Assembly (NCBI GenBank): GCA_001784175.1
Contig: MFPR01000006.1
Span: forward strand, 62,001-126,000
Source of the DNA: Candidatus Lindowbacteria bacterium RIFCSPLOWO2_12_FULL_62_27
Lineage (GTDB): Bacteria > Lindowbacteria > 2-12-FULL-62-27
Length of the DNA: 64,000 nt
Direction: 5' to 3'
Shown here: piece by piece, positions 12,889 to 58,304 of the stretch
How the letters are laid out: each line of letters opens with the position of its first letter
Numbering within the stretch: the stretch's first letter is position 1
Notes under the pieces: generated by a model
What the model was told of the DNA's origin: nothing
Databases searched by the model: none
What the model saw: the letters and a program-made list of their open reading frames with translations, nothing else
Translations under genes and position numbers: made by a program

Positions 12889-12978
12889 GGTGCCGGACAT
12901 AGACTTATAGACTTATTGCGGCAGCGATCGCATGATTCCCCCGTATGCCAATAAGTCTATAAGTCTATGTCCGGCACC
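12889..12978. mobile_element. 90-bp MITE/REPIN of the RAYT family
   Basis: GGTGCCGGACATAGACTTATAGACTTATTG ... CAATAAGTCTATAAGTCTATGTCCGGCACC, the same TIR as at 57226/58188. Confidence 0.9.
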
Positions 12979-41845: not shown

Positions 41846-42142
41846 TTACGCCGGTAAAAGATCAATCTTCAGACGTGCGCCAGTCGCTTCAGCAATCTTT
41901 TCCAGTGTTTTTAAAGTAAAGCCTTCGTATTCCCCGCTTTCGATCCTTGATACGGCCTGCTGGCTGGTTCCCATCGCCTTCGCCAACTCTTTCTGGGTCA
42001 GACCCCTTCTCTCCCGGAGTTTGGAGATTTTGATGGCCAGCGCAAGCGCACGGCGTTCCTCGTCAAAATGTTTCCTGAATTCGGGATCCTTCAATTCCTT
42101 TTTGAGGTGTTCCTGAAAAGTTCTGATCTTCGGTTTTCTCAT
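41846..42142 (-). CDS. HigA-like XRE HTH antitoxin
   Basis: LKDPEFRKHF...GLTQKELA..MGTSQQAVSRIESG. Confidence 0.9.
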   Translation of the reverse strand: MRKPKIRTFQEHLKKELKDPEFRKHFDEERRALALAIKISKLRERRGLTQKELAKAMGTSQQAVSRIESGEYEGFTLKTLEKIAEATGARLKIDLLPA

Positions 42143-42148
42143 GGGCGT

Positions 42149-42502
42149 TCAACCTCCTCTCGGGTGTCTGGCGATCCAGTCCGCCATGCGGCTTTCCGCT
42201 AAAGTGATATCGCTCTCCTTCAGCTTCGGCGTTGTCTTCAGCAGGGCGTGAAGCAACACAATGCGTCCTTCAAGAAAGAAAAAGTGCAAAATCCGGTATT
42301 TTTTTGAACCCATCTGAACCCTCAATTCCCGAATCTTTCCACGTACGTGATCCGCGTACGGCCGTTTAAGATCGGGACCGTATTGAGCCAACAGGTCGAT
42401 ATGGGCCATGACCTTCGCACGAGACTTCTTGTCCATGTTGTCCAAGAACTCAAGGACAGGTTGGTCTCCTCGTTCCGTGCTGTAGTAAATAAGCGAGTAC
42501 AC
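42149..42502 (-). CDS. RelE/HigB (Gp49-like) toxin
   Basis: GDQPVLEFL...GPDLKRPYA...IRELR...YRILHFF...LLHALLKTT; toxin-first gene order. Confidence 0.9.
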   Translation of the reverse strand: MYSLIYYSTERGDQPVLEFLDNMDKKSRAKVMAHIDLLAQYGPDLKRPYADHVRGKIRELRVQMGSKKYRILHFFFLEGRIVLLHALLKTTPKLKESDITLAESRMADWIARHPRGG

Positions 42503-42511
42503 GCAGAAAAT

Positions 42512-42537
42512 ATACATCAGAACTGATGTATTGTCAA
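42512..42537 (-). promoter_or_regulatory. higBA promoter/operator
   Basis: Inverted repeat ATACATCAG-AA-CTGATGTAT next to minus-strand TTGACA. Confidence 0.7.
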
Positions 42538-42562
42538 ATTTGGAAAATTTTCTCATCAGATG

Positions 42563-42814
42563 GTGCCAGGTATTGAGTTTTTGGGGAAAGGACGCCATTC
42601 AAATAAAGGCGGGGGTCTTGCACATGAGACCGCACCGAATTCGAGCGCCGGGGACTTTGTCCCACGAGACCTCGCGTGGAAATCCGGATGGTCGAAATAG
42701 CCGGCACGATCCGGCGAACGACCCCCGCCGCCGTCCGATTCGATGGGTTTTTCTCACTATCATATCTGACCGTTTGGCGTTCTTTCCAAAACTCATAAAC
42801 TCAATACCTGGCAC
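42563..42814 (+). mobile_element. Decayed second-family RAYT element (TIRs plus transposase N-terminal remnant)
   Basis: 18-bp perfect inverted repeat GTGCCAGGTATTGAGTTT / AAACTCAATACCTGGCAC; internal ATG 42624 reads MRPHRIRAPGTLSHETSRGN. Confidence 0.75.
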
Positions 42815-42870
42815 TATCAGCCCCTATCAGCCCTGGCACTATCAGCCCTACTATCATCCCTATCAGCCCC
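42807..42870. repeat. Tandem CTATCAGCCC repeats, including a duplicated CCTGGCAC element end
   Basis: Five CTATCA(G/T)CCC units; CCTGGCACTATCAGCCC occurs twice. Confidence 0.85.
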
Positions 42871-42881
42871 TCGGACCGCGC

Positions 42882-43826
42882 TTATTCAACCCCCAAGAGC
42901 TTCTTGTATTCGGTGATGGCCTCCGGTGTGAGCGGGCGGCCGCTGTTTTCCGGTCTGGCGTCAACCCCATAAAACACCGCGTGCGCTTCATCCGGCTCGG
43001 CCAAGAAGATGGACGAAAGCAGACGCCATTGGCCCTTCGAACCGACTTCCTCCGTCACGCGTAGAAACTGATGAATATTGTTTTTCGTGCTGTATACATT
43101 GCGGGTAATCAGGAAGAACAAGTTCTCTTCGTCGTCTTCTGTTTCCTTGCTGGGTTCTCCGTCGTCCCCGTCCGCCCCACGCCGCTTCCGCACGTCCTTT
43201 TCGGCATCGTCGGACCTCGGCGATTCCCGAACCAGTGGAACGATTTGAGGCGCCGCAAATCCAACCCCCCGGCATTCGTCGGTCGTACCCCACATTACGT
43301 CCGGATCCATCCCTTTCGTATCCTCGGGGCGGACGCAGAAAACCTCCTCGAAATCGTGTTCGAATGAAGAAGCCCACAACATGGAAGATCCAAGGCGGAC
43401 GAAGTCCAGCGCATCGGTTTCGGTTCGGATCTTGACATAGCCACGAAGGTCGTTGAGCGTCTGAACAGGACGAATCAGAGTGTCGCCTTCCACCAGTTTG
43501 ATGTCGAATCTGCCGGCTCGTCGTGCCTCTTTGGATTGTTTTTGGATTTTCACAAGGTACATCTTGGGCGGCACCCCCCAGAGTGCCCCCCCCTTCATAT
43601 GCCCACTCTTGTTTTCCACTAATATCAAAACTTTTTCTTTCATCATCGGTCTGGACAAATGAAGACCGGCCTTTTTCGTACTTCTATCTATTCGATGAAA
43701 CCGCATTCCGGCAAAGTCGATGTGACCGCCAACGACAGACGGATACCACAGATTTTCGGCAGACGACGCCTGAACTGACAAAACGCCAATACTCATACAG
43801 AGTAAAAAGATTCTGACTATGCGCAT
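42882..43826 (-). CDS. Secreted hypothetical protein (possible partner or immunity protein)
   Basis: 314-aa ORF with signal peptide, lower GC, overlapping the upstream stop. Confidence 0.6.
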   Translation of the reverse strand: MRIVRIFLLCMSIGVLSVQASSAENLWYPSVVGGHIDFAGMRFHRIDRSTKKAGLHLSRPMMKEKVLILVENKSGHMKGGALWGVPPKMYLVKIQKQSKEARRAGRFDIKLVEGDTLIRPVQTLNDLRGYVKIRTETDALDFVRLGSSMLWASSFEHDFEEVFCVRPEDTKGMDPDVMWGTTDECRGVGFAAPQIVPLVRESPRSDDAEKDVRKRRGADGDDGEPSKETEDDEENLFFLITRNVYSTKNNIHQFLRVTEEVGSKGQWRLLSSIFLAEPDEAHAVFYGVDARPENSGRPLTPEAITEYKKLLGVE

Positions 43827-45127
43827 ATATCACCACTCCTCATAAACTTTCGCAAATGTTTTCTAAATTTTGTCAAGAATTCCTTCTCCTTCGAACCCGG
43901 CGTCGCCGCATTCCATTTGTTTCGGAGGCACACCAGTTGTTCCAAGATTGCCCGCTGTTCGCTTCGTTCACAATCCGCGTCATCGTCGTACTTGGGCGCC
44001 ATCACGCAACAGCACCCCTGGCACCGGTCCTCATATCCGTTGATCGGGTCGTTCAACCAGTCGATATGATCCTTCTCGTGCTCTTGCGAGCATTCCCGCG
44101 CCATGTCCGCATATTGATCTCGCTCGGACGAGGTCGAGCCTGCCGGCGCGAATCGGTCGGTGGATTTTCTGTACGCATCACGGTTCTTTTGAATGAATCT
44201 AAAGCCCCCGTCGCCATCGCAGTGTACACCCGCCAAAAAATCCTCCTTTTCCAGTTCCTCGAATATTTTTGCCGTGAGATTGCATGAAGATCCGGGCGTC
44301 GGACACAATTCATCCTGAAAGTCCGCCGCAGACAATCCACTGGTGTTCATTGCCTCCTGATAGTCTCCCGCCACCACTTTCTTGGTCGCCCGGTTGACCT
44401 CCGCCGCGGACATCCCGTCCGGTGGTCCGGGCATTCGCCAGACCCATTCCAATTCATACAAGCCGTCGTCCAAGAATTTAATGCCCACCGGATTTCCGAA
44501 TTCGGGAAAATCCTGATTGGACGCGCCCATGTTTCCGCTGCTGACTTCGTCTCCATTTACCCCAAACTGATGGTCCGTATAACCGCTGCCGTCATGCTGC
44601 CGGACATGAAAATCGCTCTGCTTGGTCGTGAAGAGCCCGGCCGGGCTGTTGACCGGATCGGGTTCCTCGACATCGCTCCCGTCCCTCAGCTTGGGAACAT
44701 ACTCGGTCGTTTCATTCAGCTTGGCCATACACGGTCCCGTGAGGACAAAATCTTCCCCTGCGGCGATCCCCGTGATATCGAATGTGTACTTGCATCCGTT
44801 GACGGTGGCTGAATAGAATCCGACCCCCGGCAGAATGGAGATTTGCCCCACCAGTCCGAGAAGCGCGCCCGTATCGCTGAAACGGAATTCACGCGCATTG
44901 ACGACATACCAGTCTCCTTCCAATAGTCCCAACGGATCCGTGAGATCATGCTTGCCGAACCCGTTCGGCACGGCGGGGAAATCCCCATTGCAAGTCGTGC
45001 CTGTGAACGTCAAGAATTCCCCGTCCGCCGTTCGATGGGACGCGTAGTTGGCCGAAATCGCGACGACGACCAGAATCAGCGAAAGAACTGCAACCCCGAG
45101 CCATTTGTTGCAAATGTACTTCAGCAT
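43817..45127 (-). CDS. Secreted Cys-rich hypothetical protein with C-terminal HExxH motif
   Basis: N-terminal signal/TM segment; ECSQEHEKDH...CERSEQRA C-terminus. Confidence 0.6.
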   Translation of the reverse strand: MLKYICNKWLGVAVLSLILVVVAISANYASHRTADGEFLTFTGTTCNGDFPAVPNGFGKHDLTDPLGLLEGDWYVVNAREFRFSDTGALLGLVGQISILPGVGFYSATVNGCKYTFDITGIAAGEDFVLTGPCMAKLNETTEYVPKLRDGSDVEEPDPVNSPAGLFTTKQSDFHVRQHDGSGYTDHQFGVNGDEVSSGNMGASNQDFPEFGNPVGIKFLDDGLYELEWVWRMPGPPDGMSAAEVNRATKKVVAGDYQEAMNTSGLSAADFQDELCPTPGSSCNLTAKIFEELEKEDFLAGVHCDGDGGFRFIQKNRDAYRKSTDRFAPAGSTSSERDQYADMARECSQEHEKDHIDWLNDPINGYEDRCQGCCCVMAPKYDDDADCERSEQRAILEQLVCLRNKWNAATPGSKEKEFLTKFRKHLRKFMRSGDICA

Positions 45128-45262
45128 CGTAACTCTACTTATATCAAGGAAAAAAAAAAAACTTGTCAAGCACAATTTTTTCCTGTGAATTTTTCCTGTG
45201 AAAAAAGACGCCTTGCAATCCCCGAAAAGCATTGTATTTTCAGTCAGGAGCGAATAACAGAC

Positions 45263-53361: not shown

Positions 53362-55446
53362 ATGATGATTACACCACCGGGCCCGTCCGTTTCCGCCGTC
53401 GTCGTCACGTTGCGCGTAGAGCGGTTCATTGCAGATTGCCTGGAGTCGTTGCTCAAGCAGACGCATCCCGTGCGACAGATCGTTGTGGTCGACAACGGGT
53501 CGACGGACGAAACGTGCGCCATTGTCCGGCGCCGGTTTCCGCAGGTACGGCTGATCGAGCTTGGCCGCAACACCGGATTTTGCCACGCCAACAATGTCGG
53601 GTTGCGGGAAACCCAAACGGATTTTGTTCTGTTTGCGAATCCGGACACGATTCTTGAGCCGACGTATCTGCAGGAGGCCATGGCCGCGTTTGAACCCGAT
53701 CCGCGGACCGGCGCGGTGACGGGCAAGCTCCTGAGATTCGACCGGACGACGATTGATTCGGCCGGGCAGGTATTGACCCGAAGCCGGAAAATTCAGGATC
53801 GGGGATATGGCCAGAAGGATGTCGGGCAATTCAACGGGCGGGCGACGGTCGATTCCGTTTGCGGGGCGATGGCGCTGTACCGGCGCGAGATGATCGACGA
53901 GATATCGCTCGACGGCCAACTGTTCGACGAGGATTTTTTCGCATTCTGGGAAGACATGGACGTGGGCTGGAGGGCGAAGCGGGCAGGCTGGGAGGCGAGG
54001 TATGTTCCGACGGCGGTCGCCTACCATTTTCGTGGAGGAAGCCAGGAACGGCACACGGCCTGGACGAACCTGGTTCGAATGAGCGGTCGGTCGGTCGAGT
54101 CGAAATATCACATCGTCAAGAACCGCTGGCTGATGTTGATCAAGAATGAACGCGCGAAGGACTATCTGCTCCGTCTTCCGTTTATTTTGGCCCGGGATAT
54201 CGCCATGCTCGTGTATTTGCTGGTGTCCGCTCCGGCTGCTTTTATGCGACTGTTGCTTGAGCCCGGCATTTTTGTCAGGGCGTGGCAAAAACGGCGGAGA
54301 TTATTGATGAACCTTAAAACATCGATGGCCGACGTGTCTCAATCGCGCCCGAAGGCGATCTGCTTCGTGATCTCGAAACTGGGCGTGGGCGGCGCGGAAA
54401 AAAACCTCCTGCTGTTGACGGGCCGGCTGCCCAGGGACAGGTATGCGCCGGTCGTCCTCTCGCTGGACGGCGAGGGCGAATACGCGGCACGGCTGCGGGC
54501 GGCCGGCGTTCCGGTCTACGCGCTGGGGTTCCCGCGCCCGGCGTTTCTCTGGAGGCTGATCCGTTTTTTCTCACGATGCCCCTTCGATCTTTTTCATGGT
54601 TTCATGTTTCACGGGAATCTCGCGGCGCGCGTGTTTGCGAGGCTGTTGGGCAAGCCGAGCGTGAGCGCCGTGCGTGTGGCCGAGGGCGAGAAGCGCTGGC
54701 ATCTGTGGCTGGATCGATGGACAGCGCGCATGGTGGACCGATACACGGCGAACAGCGCGGCCCTGGCCGGATTCGTGACGGTCCGGCTGGGCGTGCCGGC
54801 CGGCCGGATCCGCGTCATTCCAAACGCGCTGGCGGAAGACGACCTTGAGGGCCTCCCGGACCGCGCACGCGCGCGGCGTGCGCTGGGCCTTCCGGAGGCG
54901 GGCCTCTTCGTGTCCATGGTGGGCCGGCTGCACTTTCAGAAGGACCCGGAAACGTTCGTCCGGGCGGCGCGTGTGATCGCGGCAGAAGTAGAGGGCGTGC
55001 AGTTCGGCATCGCGGGCATCGGCCCGCTGAAGGAACGCCTGGAGCGGATGATCGCCTCCGCAGGACTTGGCGGCCGGTTTCACCTGCTGGGCCTTGTGGA
55101 CGCGCGCGCCGTTTACGCCGCGTCGGACGTGTTCGTGCTGCCGTCGCGTTGGGAGGGATTCCCAAACGCCGCGATCGAAGCGATGGCCGCGGGCAGGCCC
55201 GTTGTCCTCGCCGACTTTGAAGGCGCGTCGGAAGTCGTGGATTACGGCGTCACCGGCATGGTCTTCCCGCGCGGGGACGACCGCGCGCTTTCCGAAGCGG
55301 TGGTAGGCCTGCTGAGAAACGAATCGGCGCGAACGCTGATGGGTCAGAAGGCGCAGGACTCGGCGCTCGCGAAATTCACGGTTGAGAGGTTGGTCAAAGA
55401 CAATATGGCGATTTATGATGAGCTCGTGGCACGGTGCCGGACATAG
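53362..55446 (+). CDS. GT2 + GT4 fusion glycosyltransferase
   Basis: VVDNGSTD, NPD and FWEDMD (GT2); GVGGAEK...PSRWEGFPNAAIEAMA (GT4). Confidence 0.9.
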   Translation: MMITPPGPSVSAVVVTLRVERFIADCLESLLKQTHPVRQIVVVDNGSTDETCAIVRRRFPQVRLIELGRNTGFCHANNVGLRETQTDFVLFANPDTILEPTYLQEAMAAFEPDPRTGAVTGKLLRFDRTTIDSAGQVLTRSRKIQDRGYGQKDVGQFNGRATVDSVCGAMALYRREMIDEISLDGQLFDEDFFAFWEDMDVGWRAKRAGWEARYVPTAVAYHFRGGSQERHTAWTNLVRMSGRSVESKYHIVKNRWLMLIKNERAKDYLLRLPFILARDIAMLVYLLVSAPAAFMRLLLEPGIFVRAWQKRRRLLMNLKTSMADVSQSRPKAICFVISKLGVGGAEKNLLLLTGRLPRDRYAPVVLSLDGEGEYAARLRAAGVPVYALGFPRPAFLWRLIRFFSRCPFDLFHGFMFHGNLAARVFARLLGKPSVSAVRVAEGEKRWHLWLDRWTARMVDRYTANSAALAGFVTVRLGVPAGRIRVIPNALAEDDLEGLPDRARARRALGLPEAGLFVSMVGRLHFQKDPETFVRAARVIAAEVEGVQFGIAGIGPLKERLERMIASAGLGGRFHLLGLVDARAVYAASDVFVLPSRWEGFPNAAIEAMAAGRPVVLADFEGASEVVDYGVTGMVFPRGDDRALSEAVVGLLRNESARTLMGQKAQDSALAKFTVERLVKDNMAIYDELVARCRT

Positions 55447-55542
55447 ACTTATAGACTTATTTTGGACCGGAATTTTCCTTGGACGACCCATATCTACCTG
55501 CATCATGGCCGCCAATAAGTCTATAAGTCTATGTGCGGCACC
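55433..55542. mobile_element. 110-bp MITE, internal-deletion derivative of the RAYT element
   Basis: Same TIRs; the interior ATTTTCCTTG|GACGACCCATAT joins the 3' and 5' ends of the transposase gene. Confidence 0.9.
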
Positions 55543-57225: not shown

Positions 57226-58188
57226 GGTGCCGCACATAGACTTATAGACTTATTGGCGACCAGTATTTTTCCTTGCCCATGCCCCGTGGGATCTAATGAC
57301 AATCATGGGGGTGCGATGGAAGCACTTGCCGATTTCTGTAGGTCCATATCCTTCTTCGTACATAAGTGACATCGCTGTGTGACGGAGCGTACTGATGGTC
57401 CGGTCACGCCTGGGACTGCACAATTCCTGTGGCGAGATCGTTGTTCCCAGAAGCACACGCTGGATGATCTCCTCCGGCGATTTCCTTCCCCGCCTCTCCT
57501 TAAATTTTTGCCCCTCGCGACCTTCACGGCGCCGCTCTATACCGTCCCATTGCTCTTGCGTGCCGATGTAGCCCGGTCCTTCCGGACATTCATAACTTTC
57601 CAGAGCGATGGCTGAACGAAACGCGTTGACACGACCGCGCCCATCAAAGCCCGGTGGATATTCCCAGCACTTCAGTCTGATCCAATCACATTTTTTCCCT
57701 TCAAACCAATACCAGGAACTCCATCTATAATCTGTCACGTTCTTGCAAATGCCCGCATCGGGGGCGTTTCGATGGACGTAACCGACAAGCGTGCGCAAAT
57801 ACGTTTCGTCCAAAACAATTTTACACCCCGGTCGCCCTTGAAACACGTGGCCATTTGTTTTCCGACGCTCATTGAATCGTTTCGCATATTTTGTATGCGC
57901 GGCGTGAAATATCCGGTCAAGCGAAACTTCTCCCTGACGAAGCAAGAGATGTGTGTGATTGGTCATAAGGGAAAAAGAGCCCAACGCACCGCCTCGGCGG
58001 TACAATTCATCATCGAAACACCGCAGGTAACGGACGCGATCATAGGGAGAAAAAAACAATGGCTGACCACGCTGGCCGCGAGCATAAACATGATACCAAT
58101 GGCCCGGTACAAACAGTCTCAACGGACGACCCATATCCTACTTCTATCATCGGCCCGCCAATAAGTCTATAAGTCTATGTCCGGCACC
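57226..58188 (-). mobile_element. 963-bp RAYT element with 33-bp terminal inverted repeats
   Basis: 57226-57258 and 58156-58188 are inverted copies (32/33) tightly enclosing the transposase. Confidence 0.9.
57250..58134 (-). CDS. REP-associated tyrosine transposase (Y1 HUH, RAYT) with C-terminal DnaA_C-like HTH
   Basis: MGRPLR...YHVYARG; LMTNHTHLL (HUH); GHVFQGR; YVHRN (catalytic Tyr); YRWSS; C-terminal RHTAMSL...TEIG..F.R. Confidence 0.9.
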   Translation of the reverse strand: MGRPLRLFVPGHWYHVYARGQRGQPLFFSPYDRVRYLRCFDDELYRRGGALGSFSLMTNHTHLLLRQGEVSLDRIFHAAHTKYAKRFNERRKTNGHVFQGRPGCKIVLDETYLRTLVGYVHRNAPDAGICKNVTDYRWSSWYWFEGKKCDWIRLKCWEYPPGFDGRGRVNAFRSAIALESYECPEGPGYIGTQEQWDGIERRREGREGQKFKERRGRKSPEEIIQRVLLGTTISPQELCSPRRDRTISTLRHTAMSLMYEEGYGPTEIGKCFHRTPMIVIRSHGAWARKNTGRQ

Positions 58189-58304
58189 GAATCTGACGCG
58201 GCACCGAATCTGACGGCGTACTTAAATATATAATGTATATATACAAGGACGGATATCAAACTGCACGAGAATAGTATAACAGCCTGTATTTAATTAAGTT
58301 AACA

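Follow-up and report, generated by a model that had tools for sequence, protein, structure and literature searches.

A probable TIRtron remnant with a tandemly duplicated boundary

The locus at positions 42563-42870 of the window (the whole stretch of DNA analysed, 64 kb in length) raises the question of what kind of element left a 254-bp segment bounded by inverted repeats, and how the short tandem repeats that follow its right end came about. The initial annotation placed the segment in a RAYT family with terminal inverted repeats. Its origin from a RAYT-like Y1 gene is borne out by our analysis; the proper name of the class, however, is TIRYT/TIRtron, and not REP-associated RAYT. TIRtrons are ~1-kb elements with a sole gene, the TIRYT, encoding a RAYT-like Y1/HUH nuclease fused to a helix-turn-helix that resembles domain IV of DnaA. 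We consider the feature to be a dead, non-autonomous TIRtron that suffered an internal deletion and carries tandem duplications formed at its boundary after insertion (boundary stutter), a reading to which we assign a probability of roughly 0.85.

Structure of the element

The following parts can be assigned to the element and its right flank.

42562..42583, plus strand: left terminal inverted repeat of the F2 family, a GGTGCC terminus followed by one TTGAGTTT 8-mer
42584..42623, plus strand: subterminal leader from the left arm to the start codon, the first ~15 nt of which pair with 42773-42788 in the predicted single-strand fold
42624..42682, plus strand: remnant of the transposase N-terminus, codons 1-20, MRPHRIRAPGTLSHETSRGN (profile match and DNA alignment to the intact relative L015)
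42673..42682, plus strand: deletion junction CGCGTGGAAA (overlapping blastn segments)
42683..42769, plus strand: remnant of the transposase 3' end, comprising the last ~29 codons of its DnaA_C-like helix-turn-helix (blastn to L015)
42786..42814, minus strand: right terminal inverted repeat, a GTGCC terminus and the tandem 8-mers TTGAGTTT ATGAGTTT (repeat and arm comparison)
42807..42870, plus strand: flank stutter, a 25-nt unit (CCTGGCAC and two TATCAGCC-type units) repeated about 2.1 times (repeat finding, Tandem Repeats Finder)

As the initial annotation had described, the element, 254 bp long, is bounded by an 18-bp perfect inverted repeat, GTGCCAGGTATTGAGTTT, at 42563-42580 (plus strand) and 42797-42814 (minus strand). 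Exactly two copies of it occur in the 64-kb window, and no such pair is expected across 100 shuffles of the window. According to a repeat finder, the inverted repeat can be extended to 25 nt with 92% complementarity (42559-42583 and 42794-42818). The imperfect internal tandem noted earlier on the right arm is also present, consisting of AAACTCAT AAACTCAA at 42789-42804, which on the minus strand reads TTGAGTTT ATGAGTTT; the left arm carries a single 8-mer at 42573-42580, the second one being missing. Between the arms, an ATG at 42624 opens the peptide MRPHRIRAPGTLSHETSRGN, in a frame that stays open until 42872.

When folded as a single strand, the 254-bp element is predicted to form a long hairpin of -61.8 kcal/mol (z -6.1), a value matched by none of 200 shuffles, and in the same fold the subterminal stretches GGAAAGGACGCCA and TGGCGTTCTTTCC are paired as well. 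Inside the remnant, GGCGGGGGTC and GACCCCCGCC (42608-42617 and 42720-42729) form a perfect inverted repeat of 10 nt, which gives the predicted hairpin a second stem.

Origin of the element and its relation to TIRtrons

The source genome is rich in potential relatives. A tblastn search in which the window's intact enzyme (57250-58134, minus strand) served as the query retrieved eight further full-length TIRYT paralogues in the 4.39-Mb, 44-contig genome (G000), located on contigs C1, C22, C24 (two), C36, C41, C43 and C44 (loci L043-L050). The nine intact paralogues measure 288-331 aa, each lies between its own inverted repeats, and the corresponding elements span 939-1083 bp; nine is an unusually high number for a 4.4-Mb genome. 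The window itself harbors an intact F1-family TIRtron at 57226-58190, whose gene (57250-58134, minus strand) encodes 294 aa and which shows flank-plus-terminus duplications of 16 and 17 nt, on both sides. Gene-less doublets of F1 ends, 90-110 bp long, are found at 12889-12978 and 55433-55542, the latter retaining the first codons of the gene.

A profile was built from the nine paralogue proteins, and the null consisted of six-frame readings of 3000 random genome windows of 205 bp. The N-terminal remnant scored 10.4 bits on positions 1-21 of this profile, with the match starting exactly at ATG 42624, a score that was reached by none of the 3000 random windows; the earlier proposal that the enclosed peptide is a transposase remnant was thus supported, the peptide being a transposase N-terminus. 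A collinear match to the C-terminal helix-turn-helix was found in a different frame. Its 1.9 bits were equalled by 271 of the 3000 random windows, so that the match is weak when taken alone and the C-terminal remnant has no significance at the protein level by itself.

An intact gene between F2 ends was found outside the source genome. The pattern GGTATTGAGTTWWTGAGTT is present in two of the 61 genomes searched, namely the source genome and the same-family genome G003. It also occurs in 34 genome-contig stretches, of which the five from one groundwater assembly were examined, the other 29 lying in different assemblies (Saprospiraceae and others). The element L015:1495-2491, from a same-family genome, is intact, measures 997 bp and shares its ends with the window element, with arms that lie 965 bp apart. 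It encodes a 302-aa ORF beginning MRPRRIVAPETFFHVTARGN, which matches Y1_Tnp with 44.6 bits (Pfam cut-off 23) and Bac_DnaA_C with 35.5 bits (cut-off 31.5). The HUH motif and the catalytic tyrosine are retained in this protein and all nine paralogues, with residues N58, H59, H61 and Y119 invariant. The initial annotation's peptide therefore does resemble a RAYT-like protein, as the profile match indicates, and its inverted repeat does stand beside such a gene, in L015.

At the DNA level, blastn aligned window positions 42624-42682 with L015:1536-1594 (codons 1-20) at 71% identity (E 1e-6), and 42673-42815 with L015:2340-2490 at 68% over 151 columns (E 7e-18), the second match covering the last ~100 nt of the gene, the 3' untranslated stretch and the right arm. 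With the arms excluded, the interior still matched the L015 gene with E values of 1e-5 (5' part) and 2e-7 (3' part), collinear at both ends, while the same interior gave no DNA match at E<0.1 to any of the nine in-genome paralogue loci, leaving the F2-type gene of L015 as the sole match. The 3' remnant is frame-shifted and contains a gap of 8 nt; the TGA of the ancestral gene falls at 42767-42769 in the alignment. The sequence CGCGTGGAAA (42673-42682) aligns to both the 5' and the 3' parts of the L015 gene, which indicates microhomology at the deletion junction. Compared with L015, the window copy lacks ~745 bp that include the HUH motif and the catalytic tyrosine.

Since the interior aligns collinearly to both ends of the L015 gene only, the window element is, on the strength of these alignments, an internal-deletion derivative of an F2-type element, from which ~745 bp were lost between short similar sequences. 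What remains is both inverted ends, ~20 N-terminal codons and ~29 C-terminal codons. With the HUH motif and the catalytic tyrosine deleted, the copy is to be regarded as a derivative and not as a functional member of the TIRtrons. A chance inverted repeat with a chance reading frame, or an unrelated DDE-type insertion sequence, has a negligible probability and is refuted: an 18-bp repeat for which shuffles yield no expectation, an N-terminal profile score that 0/3000 null windows reached and the blastn matches to L015 all contradict it, as does the lack of target-site duplication beyond chance in 28 paired elements. In those 28 elements the longest string shared by the two flanks averaged 2.89 nt, compared with 2.94 nt in mismatched pairs. 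The string ATCAG, which occurs near both ends of the window element, was considered as a target-site duplication and, given this flank comparison, is treated as chance.

Whether the element could still move depends on an enzyme that recognizes its ends. The F2-type gene was not found in the source genome, and it could be unassembled, since the draft (44 contigs) is 94% complete. As no cognate enzyme was found in this draft, the window element is probably immobile at present. That one of the nine resident paralogues still mobilises the feature in trans, as a live miniature element of the MITE or REPIN-like kind, is quite unlikely. Both ends are present, the single-strand hairpin is strong (-61.8 kcal/mol, z -6.1, 0/200 shuffles), doublets of 59-110 bp are numerous in other families of the source genome, and the paralogues closest to the F2-type enzyme (C43, C24b and C22, 47-50% identity) use AAGTT-type 8-mers similar to that of F2. 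However, F2 is represented in the source genome by a single paired copy and a handful of solo or divergent arms; one 8-mer has been lost from the left arm; the arms of the paralogues are all distinct, without a match to the 8-mer of F2; and the size of the element together with its retained gene ends indicates a one-off deletion rather than an amplified miniature family. A generic MITE measures 70-300 bp and has terminal inverted repeats, no coding capacity and a target-site duplication; the window element agrees in its size of 254 bp, its inverted repeats and its destroyed gene, and the 28 paired elements show no target duplication above chance.

A deleted TIRtron thus remains our reading, and its class is an already described one. 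RAYT-like genes with long inverted repeats were named TIRYTs, and the corresponding elements TIRtrons, by Di Nocera, De Gregorio and Rocco, who reported a GGGGWSAS motif in 'some' of the terminal inverted repeats and end families present in single, dimeric and clustered form (Di Nocera et al., 2013; PMC3733652). Most TIRYTs were assigned to TnpA-Y1 subclass 2.1, whose proteins bear a Bac_DnaA_C or HTH extension (Quentin et al., 2018; PMC6006769). Traits of this class recur here: the window element goes back to a RAYT-like Y1/HUH gene that lay between long terminal inverted repeats and not REP stem-loops, the protein has a C-terminal helix-turn-helix, and the ends are scattered genome-wide as singles, dimers and clusters, with several paralogues per genome that each have their own ends. 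The GC-rich end motif resembles GGGGWSAS to a varying degree: the F2 terminus GGTGCCAG agrees with it at 6 of 8 positions, that of the sister family C41 (GGGGTCAG) at all 8 and that of C36 (GGTGTCAG) at 7. The window copy differs in having no catalytic core. The Bac_DnaA_C extension (35.5 bits in the L015 protein against the cut-off of 31.5; E 2e-7 for the last ~29 codons of the window copy) points to subclass 2.1.2, an assignment made by domain and not by tree.

Other systems fit less well. The arms have neither the GTAG tag nor the self-complementarity of classical RAYT/REPtrons and carry tandem direct 8-mers instead; TIRYT proteins possess an extra helix-turn-helix domain that classical RAYTs do not have, and the NCBIfam RayT model NF047646 gave 65.2 and 38.5 bits against a cut-off of 80. 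REPIN/RAYT systems, reportedly described by Bertels and Rainey in 2011, are similar in that a Y1 gene present in one copy has its own short repeat on either side, and in that gene-less inverted doublets fold as hairpins. The Y1/HUH catalytic domain and the lack of target-site duplication are shared with the IS200/IS605 family (IS608, ISDra2) (PMC6006769; PMC8266576), the ends of which, however, are asymmetric subterminal hairpins without inverted repeats, as opposed to the symmetric inverted repeats seen here; moreover, the transposase of that family, as presented in those texts, is shorter than a TIRYT and has no helix-turn-helix.

Regarding its surroundings, the element sits between the stop codon of a 314-aa ORF and a near-consensus promoter, TTGACA-17-TATATT (42537-42509, minus strand), that lies ahead of the genes for a Gp49/HigB-like toxin and an HTH antitoxin. 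The intergenic repeat next to this toxin-antitoxin promoter is transposon debris and not a regulatory device. The toxin-antitoxin pair occupies 41846-42598 on the minus strand (Gp49/HigB-like toxin, Pfam 1e-21; HTH_3 antitoxin). Its listed ATG at 42598 falls inside the element, so that the true start probably lies further downstream. The promoter overlaps the palindrome ATACATCAG-TT-CTGATGTAT. Three other samples contain a 134-nt contig that overlays 42285-42418, within the toxin gene, with 10 differences and could represent a strain variant or a paralogue. On the other side, two overlapping ORFs of about 314 aa (42882-43826) and about 471 aa (43817-45232) lie on the minus strand, neither having a Pfam or PADLOC match.

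Arm plan and boundary stutter

Across the source genome, ten end families (the nine paralogues plus F2) with 110 arms were recognized, including singles and doublets of 59-110 bp. The arms follow a common plan: the terminus is GC-rich and, according to family, reads GGTGCC, GGGGCC, GGGGTC or GGTGTC, and behind it comes a tandem 8/9-mer beginning 8-12 nt inside. The tandem was found at this offset in 10 of 11 arms (shuffle p<=0.016), C41 being the exception (p 0.17). Comparison of eight F2-type arms shows an invariant first 8-mer region (GTATTGAGTT) and a variable terminal hexamer. The general rule put forward in the initial annotation is therefore upheld in part: the combination of terminus, family-specific 8-mer and duplicated flank stands statistically over ten end families, while a shared GTGCC does not.

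Outside the source genome the tandem 8/9-mer is less general. A single scan confirmed 563 metagenome relatives, of which 80 loci were kept, 77 with a complete ORF and 49 with a clear inverted repeat; the tandem was strong in 3 of 11 long elements bearing a helix-turn-helix and in none of 38 short ones. A distant TIRtron on a metagenome contig (L060:994-1024 and 2266-2296) has the GGTGCCAGG terminus in common with F2 and a different tandem motif, TTCGGT, which suggests that terminus and inner repeats evolve separately. In the source genome, a dense cluster of solo arms outside the window (G000:C6:252800-257700, partly L051) comprises at least four end families (C24b, C43, C22 and F2) and an F1-like piece, and may be an insertion hot spot or a graveyard.

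The C-terminal domain, which resembles domain IV of DnaA, matches Pfam Bac_DnaA_C, and the direct-repeat 8/9-mers, as candidate binding sites, have the length of the 9-bp DnaA box (PMC6006769). They differ from it in sequence, since ATTGAGTT, ATAGACTT, TAAGTTGT and others vary by family and do not follow TT[AT]TNCACA. GGGGWSAS itself is unlike a DnaA box, and it is the only end motif compared with that box in the text of Quentin et al. (PMC6006769). A covariation between helix-turn-helix and 8-mer sequences would be no sign of binding, given that a gene passes on together with its ends and the two would covary in any case.

Beyond the right end of the window element, the five flank units described earlier are indeed present, namely four exact TATCAGCC units (42815, 42825, 42840 and 42861) and the variant TATCATCC at 42852, and seven exact TATCAGCC copies occur in the window compared with 0.79 expected. 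The sequence CCTGGCACTATCAGCCC at 42807 recurs at 42832 with 100% identity, such that a second copy of the terminus CCTGGCAC (42832-42839), together with the first flank unit, lies beyond the right end. Tandem Repeats Finder describes 42807-42861 as 2.1 copies of a 25-nt period (90% matches, score 87). The array at 42807-42870 is thus a boundary stutter, in which a few flank bases and the outermost arm bases are tandemly duplicated; the presence of the element terminus inside the repeat unit implies that it formed after insertion. No copy-number variation of the array was seen in the Logan contigs of three other samples, X4, X5 and X6, that cross 42389-42935 or beyond (0 differences, 0 gaps), contigs being unable to show rare variants; the X7 contig ends at 42805, before the array.

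When a stutter was defined as a tandem duplication with an inner copy that stops at the boundary of the arm, it was detected at 37 of all 110 arms of the source genome compared with 38 of 5000 random genome positions, and at 9 of 93 metagenome arms compared with 6 of 875 metagenome control positions. Within the source genome, arms beside intact genes (master copies) stuttered in 10 of 18 cases, non-master arms in 26 of 90, and the window element at one of its two arms. The intact F2 element shows about five flank units on each side (L015/L006), while the three solo F2 arms of G003 have repeated flank units at L008 and L004 and a single GGTACTGG-like unit at L002. Boundary stutter is therefore a scar found repeatedly at the ends of such elements. 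The duplication of flank proposed in the initial annotation is real, although its period ranges over 6-25 nt and is not fixed at ~10 bp. The duplicated unit consists of 4-11 nt of flank and 0-17 nt of arm, and never extends past the first 8-mer. Five arrays in the genome include 10-17 nt of element-specific arm sequence, e.g. GGGGCCAGACCGTAAGT, and so must have arisen after insertion.

This composition of the units bears on whether the arrays might pre-date the element. Tandem repeats can provide the kind of single-stranded or structured DNA on which HUH transposases act, and an insertion preference for short tandem repeats could on that ground account for the association. This is very unlikely, given that the window unit contains the element's own terminus (CCTGGCAC again at 42832) and that units elsewhere contain 10-17 nt of arm sequence such as GGGGCCAGACCGTAAGT. 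No empty site was found for comparison: the right-hand neighbour protein, used as the query (42882-43823), gave no hit in the same-family genomes G001-G003 (81-91% complete), and the L015 flanks show no similarity to the window neighbours.

As to the cause of the stutter after insertion, a repeat-generating mechanism is something that we infer. The junction may lie anywhere between 0 and 17 nt into the arm, so that a single precise cleavage site is unsupported; a fixed cut right after the hexamer fits only 10 of 34 exact arrays (13 of 34 with one extra base), and the idea was withdrawn. Our preferred explanation, to which we would give somewhat less than even odds, is that the transposase repeatedly nicks and rejoins DNA at its own end, or that repair synthesis takes place there. 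In the intact element, the helix-turn-helix would bind the tandem 8/9-mers, as candidate sites 8-12 nt inside each end, and the Y1 domain would nick single-stranded DNA at or near the GC-rich terminal hexamer. Cleavage of single-stranded DNA by classical TnpA_REP takes place at several sites on both the 5' and the 3' side of the enzyme's repeat, and the enzyme can use any suitable 3'-OH for joining, including a foreign one (Corneloup et al., 2021; PMC8266576). Chemistry of this type could in principle yield short duplications.

The main alternative is a replication slippage independent of the transposase, in which the fork halts at an end that forms a hairpin or is occupied by protein, and the last few bases are then copied again by the nascent strand. 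It is a possible but doubtful explanation. Junctions 0-17 nt into the arm with a flank share of 4-11 nt fit one cut site less well than a diffuse zone of stalling, arrays never pass the first 8-mer, as would be predicted if the 8-mer acted as a roadblock, and non-master arms stutter too (26/90). On the other hand, master copies stutter more often (10/18 vs 26/90), solo arms stutter although they are unable to form a local hairpin, and most two-copy arrays show little or no microhomology, with a run length near the period, whereas classical slippage requires microhomology.

Significance for TIRYT biology

Action of the transposase at its own end can be framed more specifically: a TIRYT may stutter its own boundary, its DnaA-like helix-turn-helix docking on the 8/9-mers while the Y1 domain repeatedly nicks and rejoins within about 20 nt of the terminus, thereby adding copies of flank plus terminus. 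In this detailed form the proposal is speculative and rather unlikely to be correct throughout. If it were true, the arrays would be a readable record of past nuclease activity, and the element class would constitute a natural, site-anchored generator of short tandem repeats, with a positioning rule for a single-strand nuclease. Neither site-anchored repeat generation nor such a positioning rule appears in the text of the two TIRYT papers (PMC3733652; PMC6006769). Likewise, boundary stutter and tandem 8/9-mers were not found in the texts of the TIRYT and RAYT/TnpAREP literature; the word 'duplication' does not occur in the text of PMC3733652, nor 'tandem' in that of PMC6006769, and no TIRYT biochemistry was found in the texts of the TIRYT literature.

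The tandem 8/9-mers and the boundary stutter thus provide testable leads on how TIRYTs engage their own ends. The former are candidate binding sites for the DnaA-like domain, a point that earlier authors left open, and the latter delimits the zone of action of the enzyme or of a stalled fork. Within the single-strand HUH transposases, TIRYTs form a widespread branch, with 563 relatives confirmed in one metagenome scan, and the source genome, with its nine intact paralogues, ten end families and one fossil, represents an unusually rich natural experiment.
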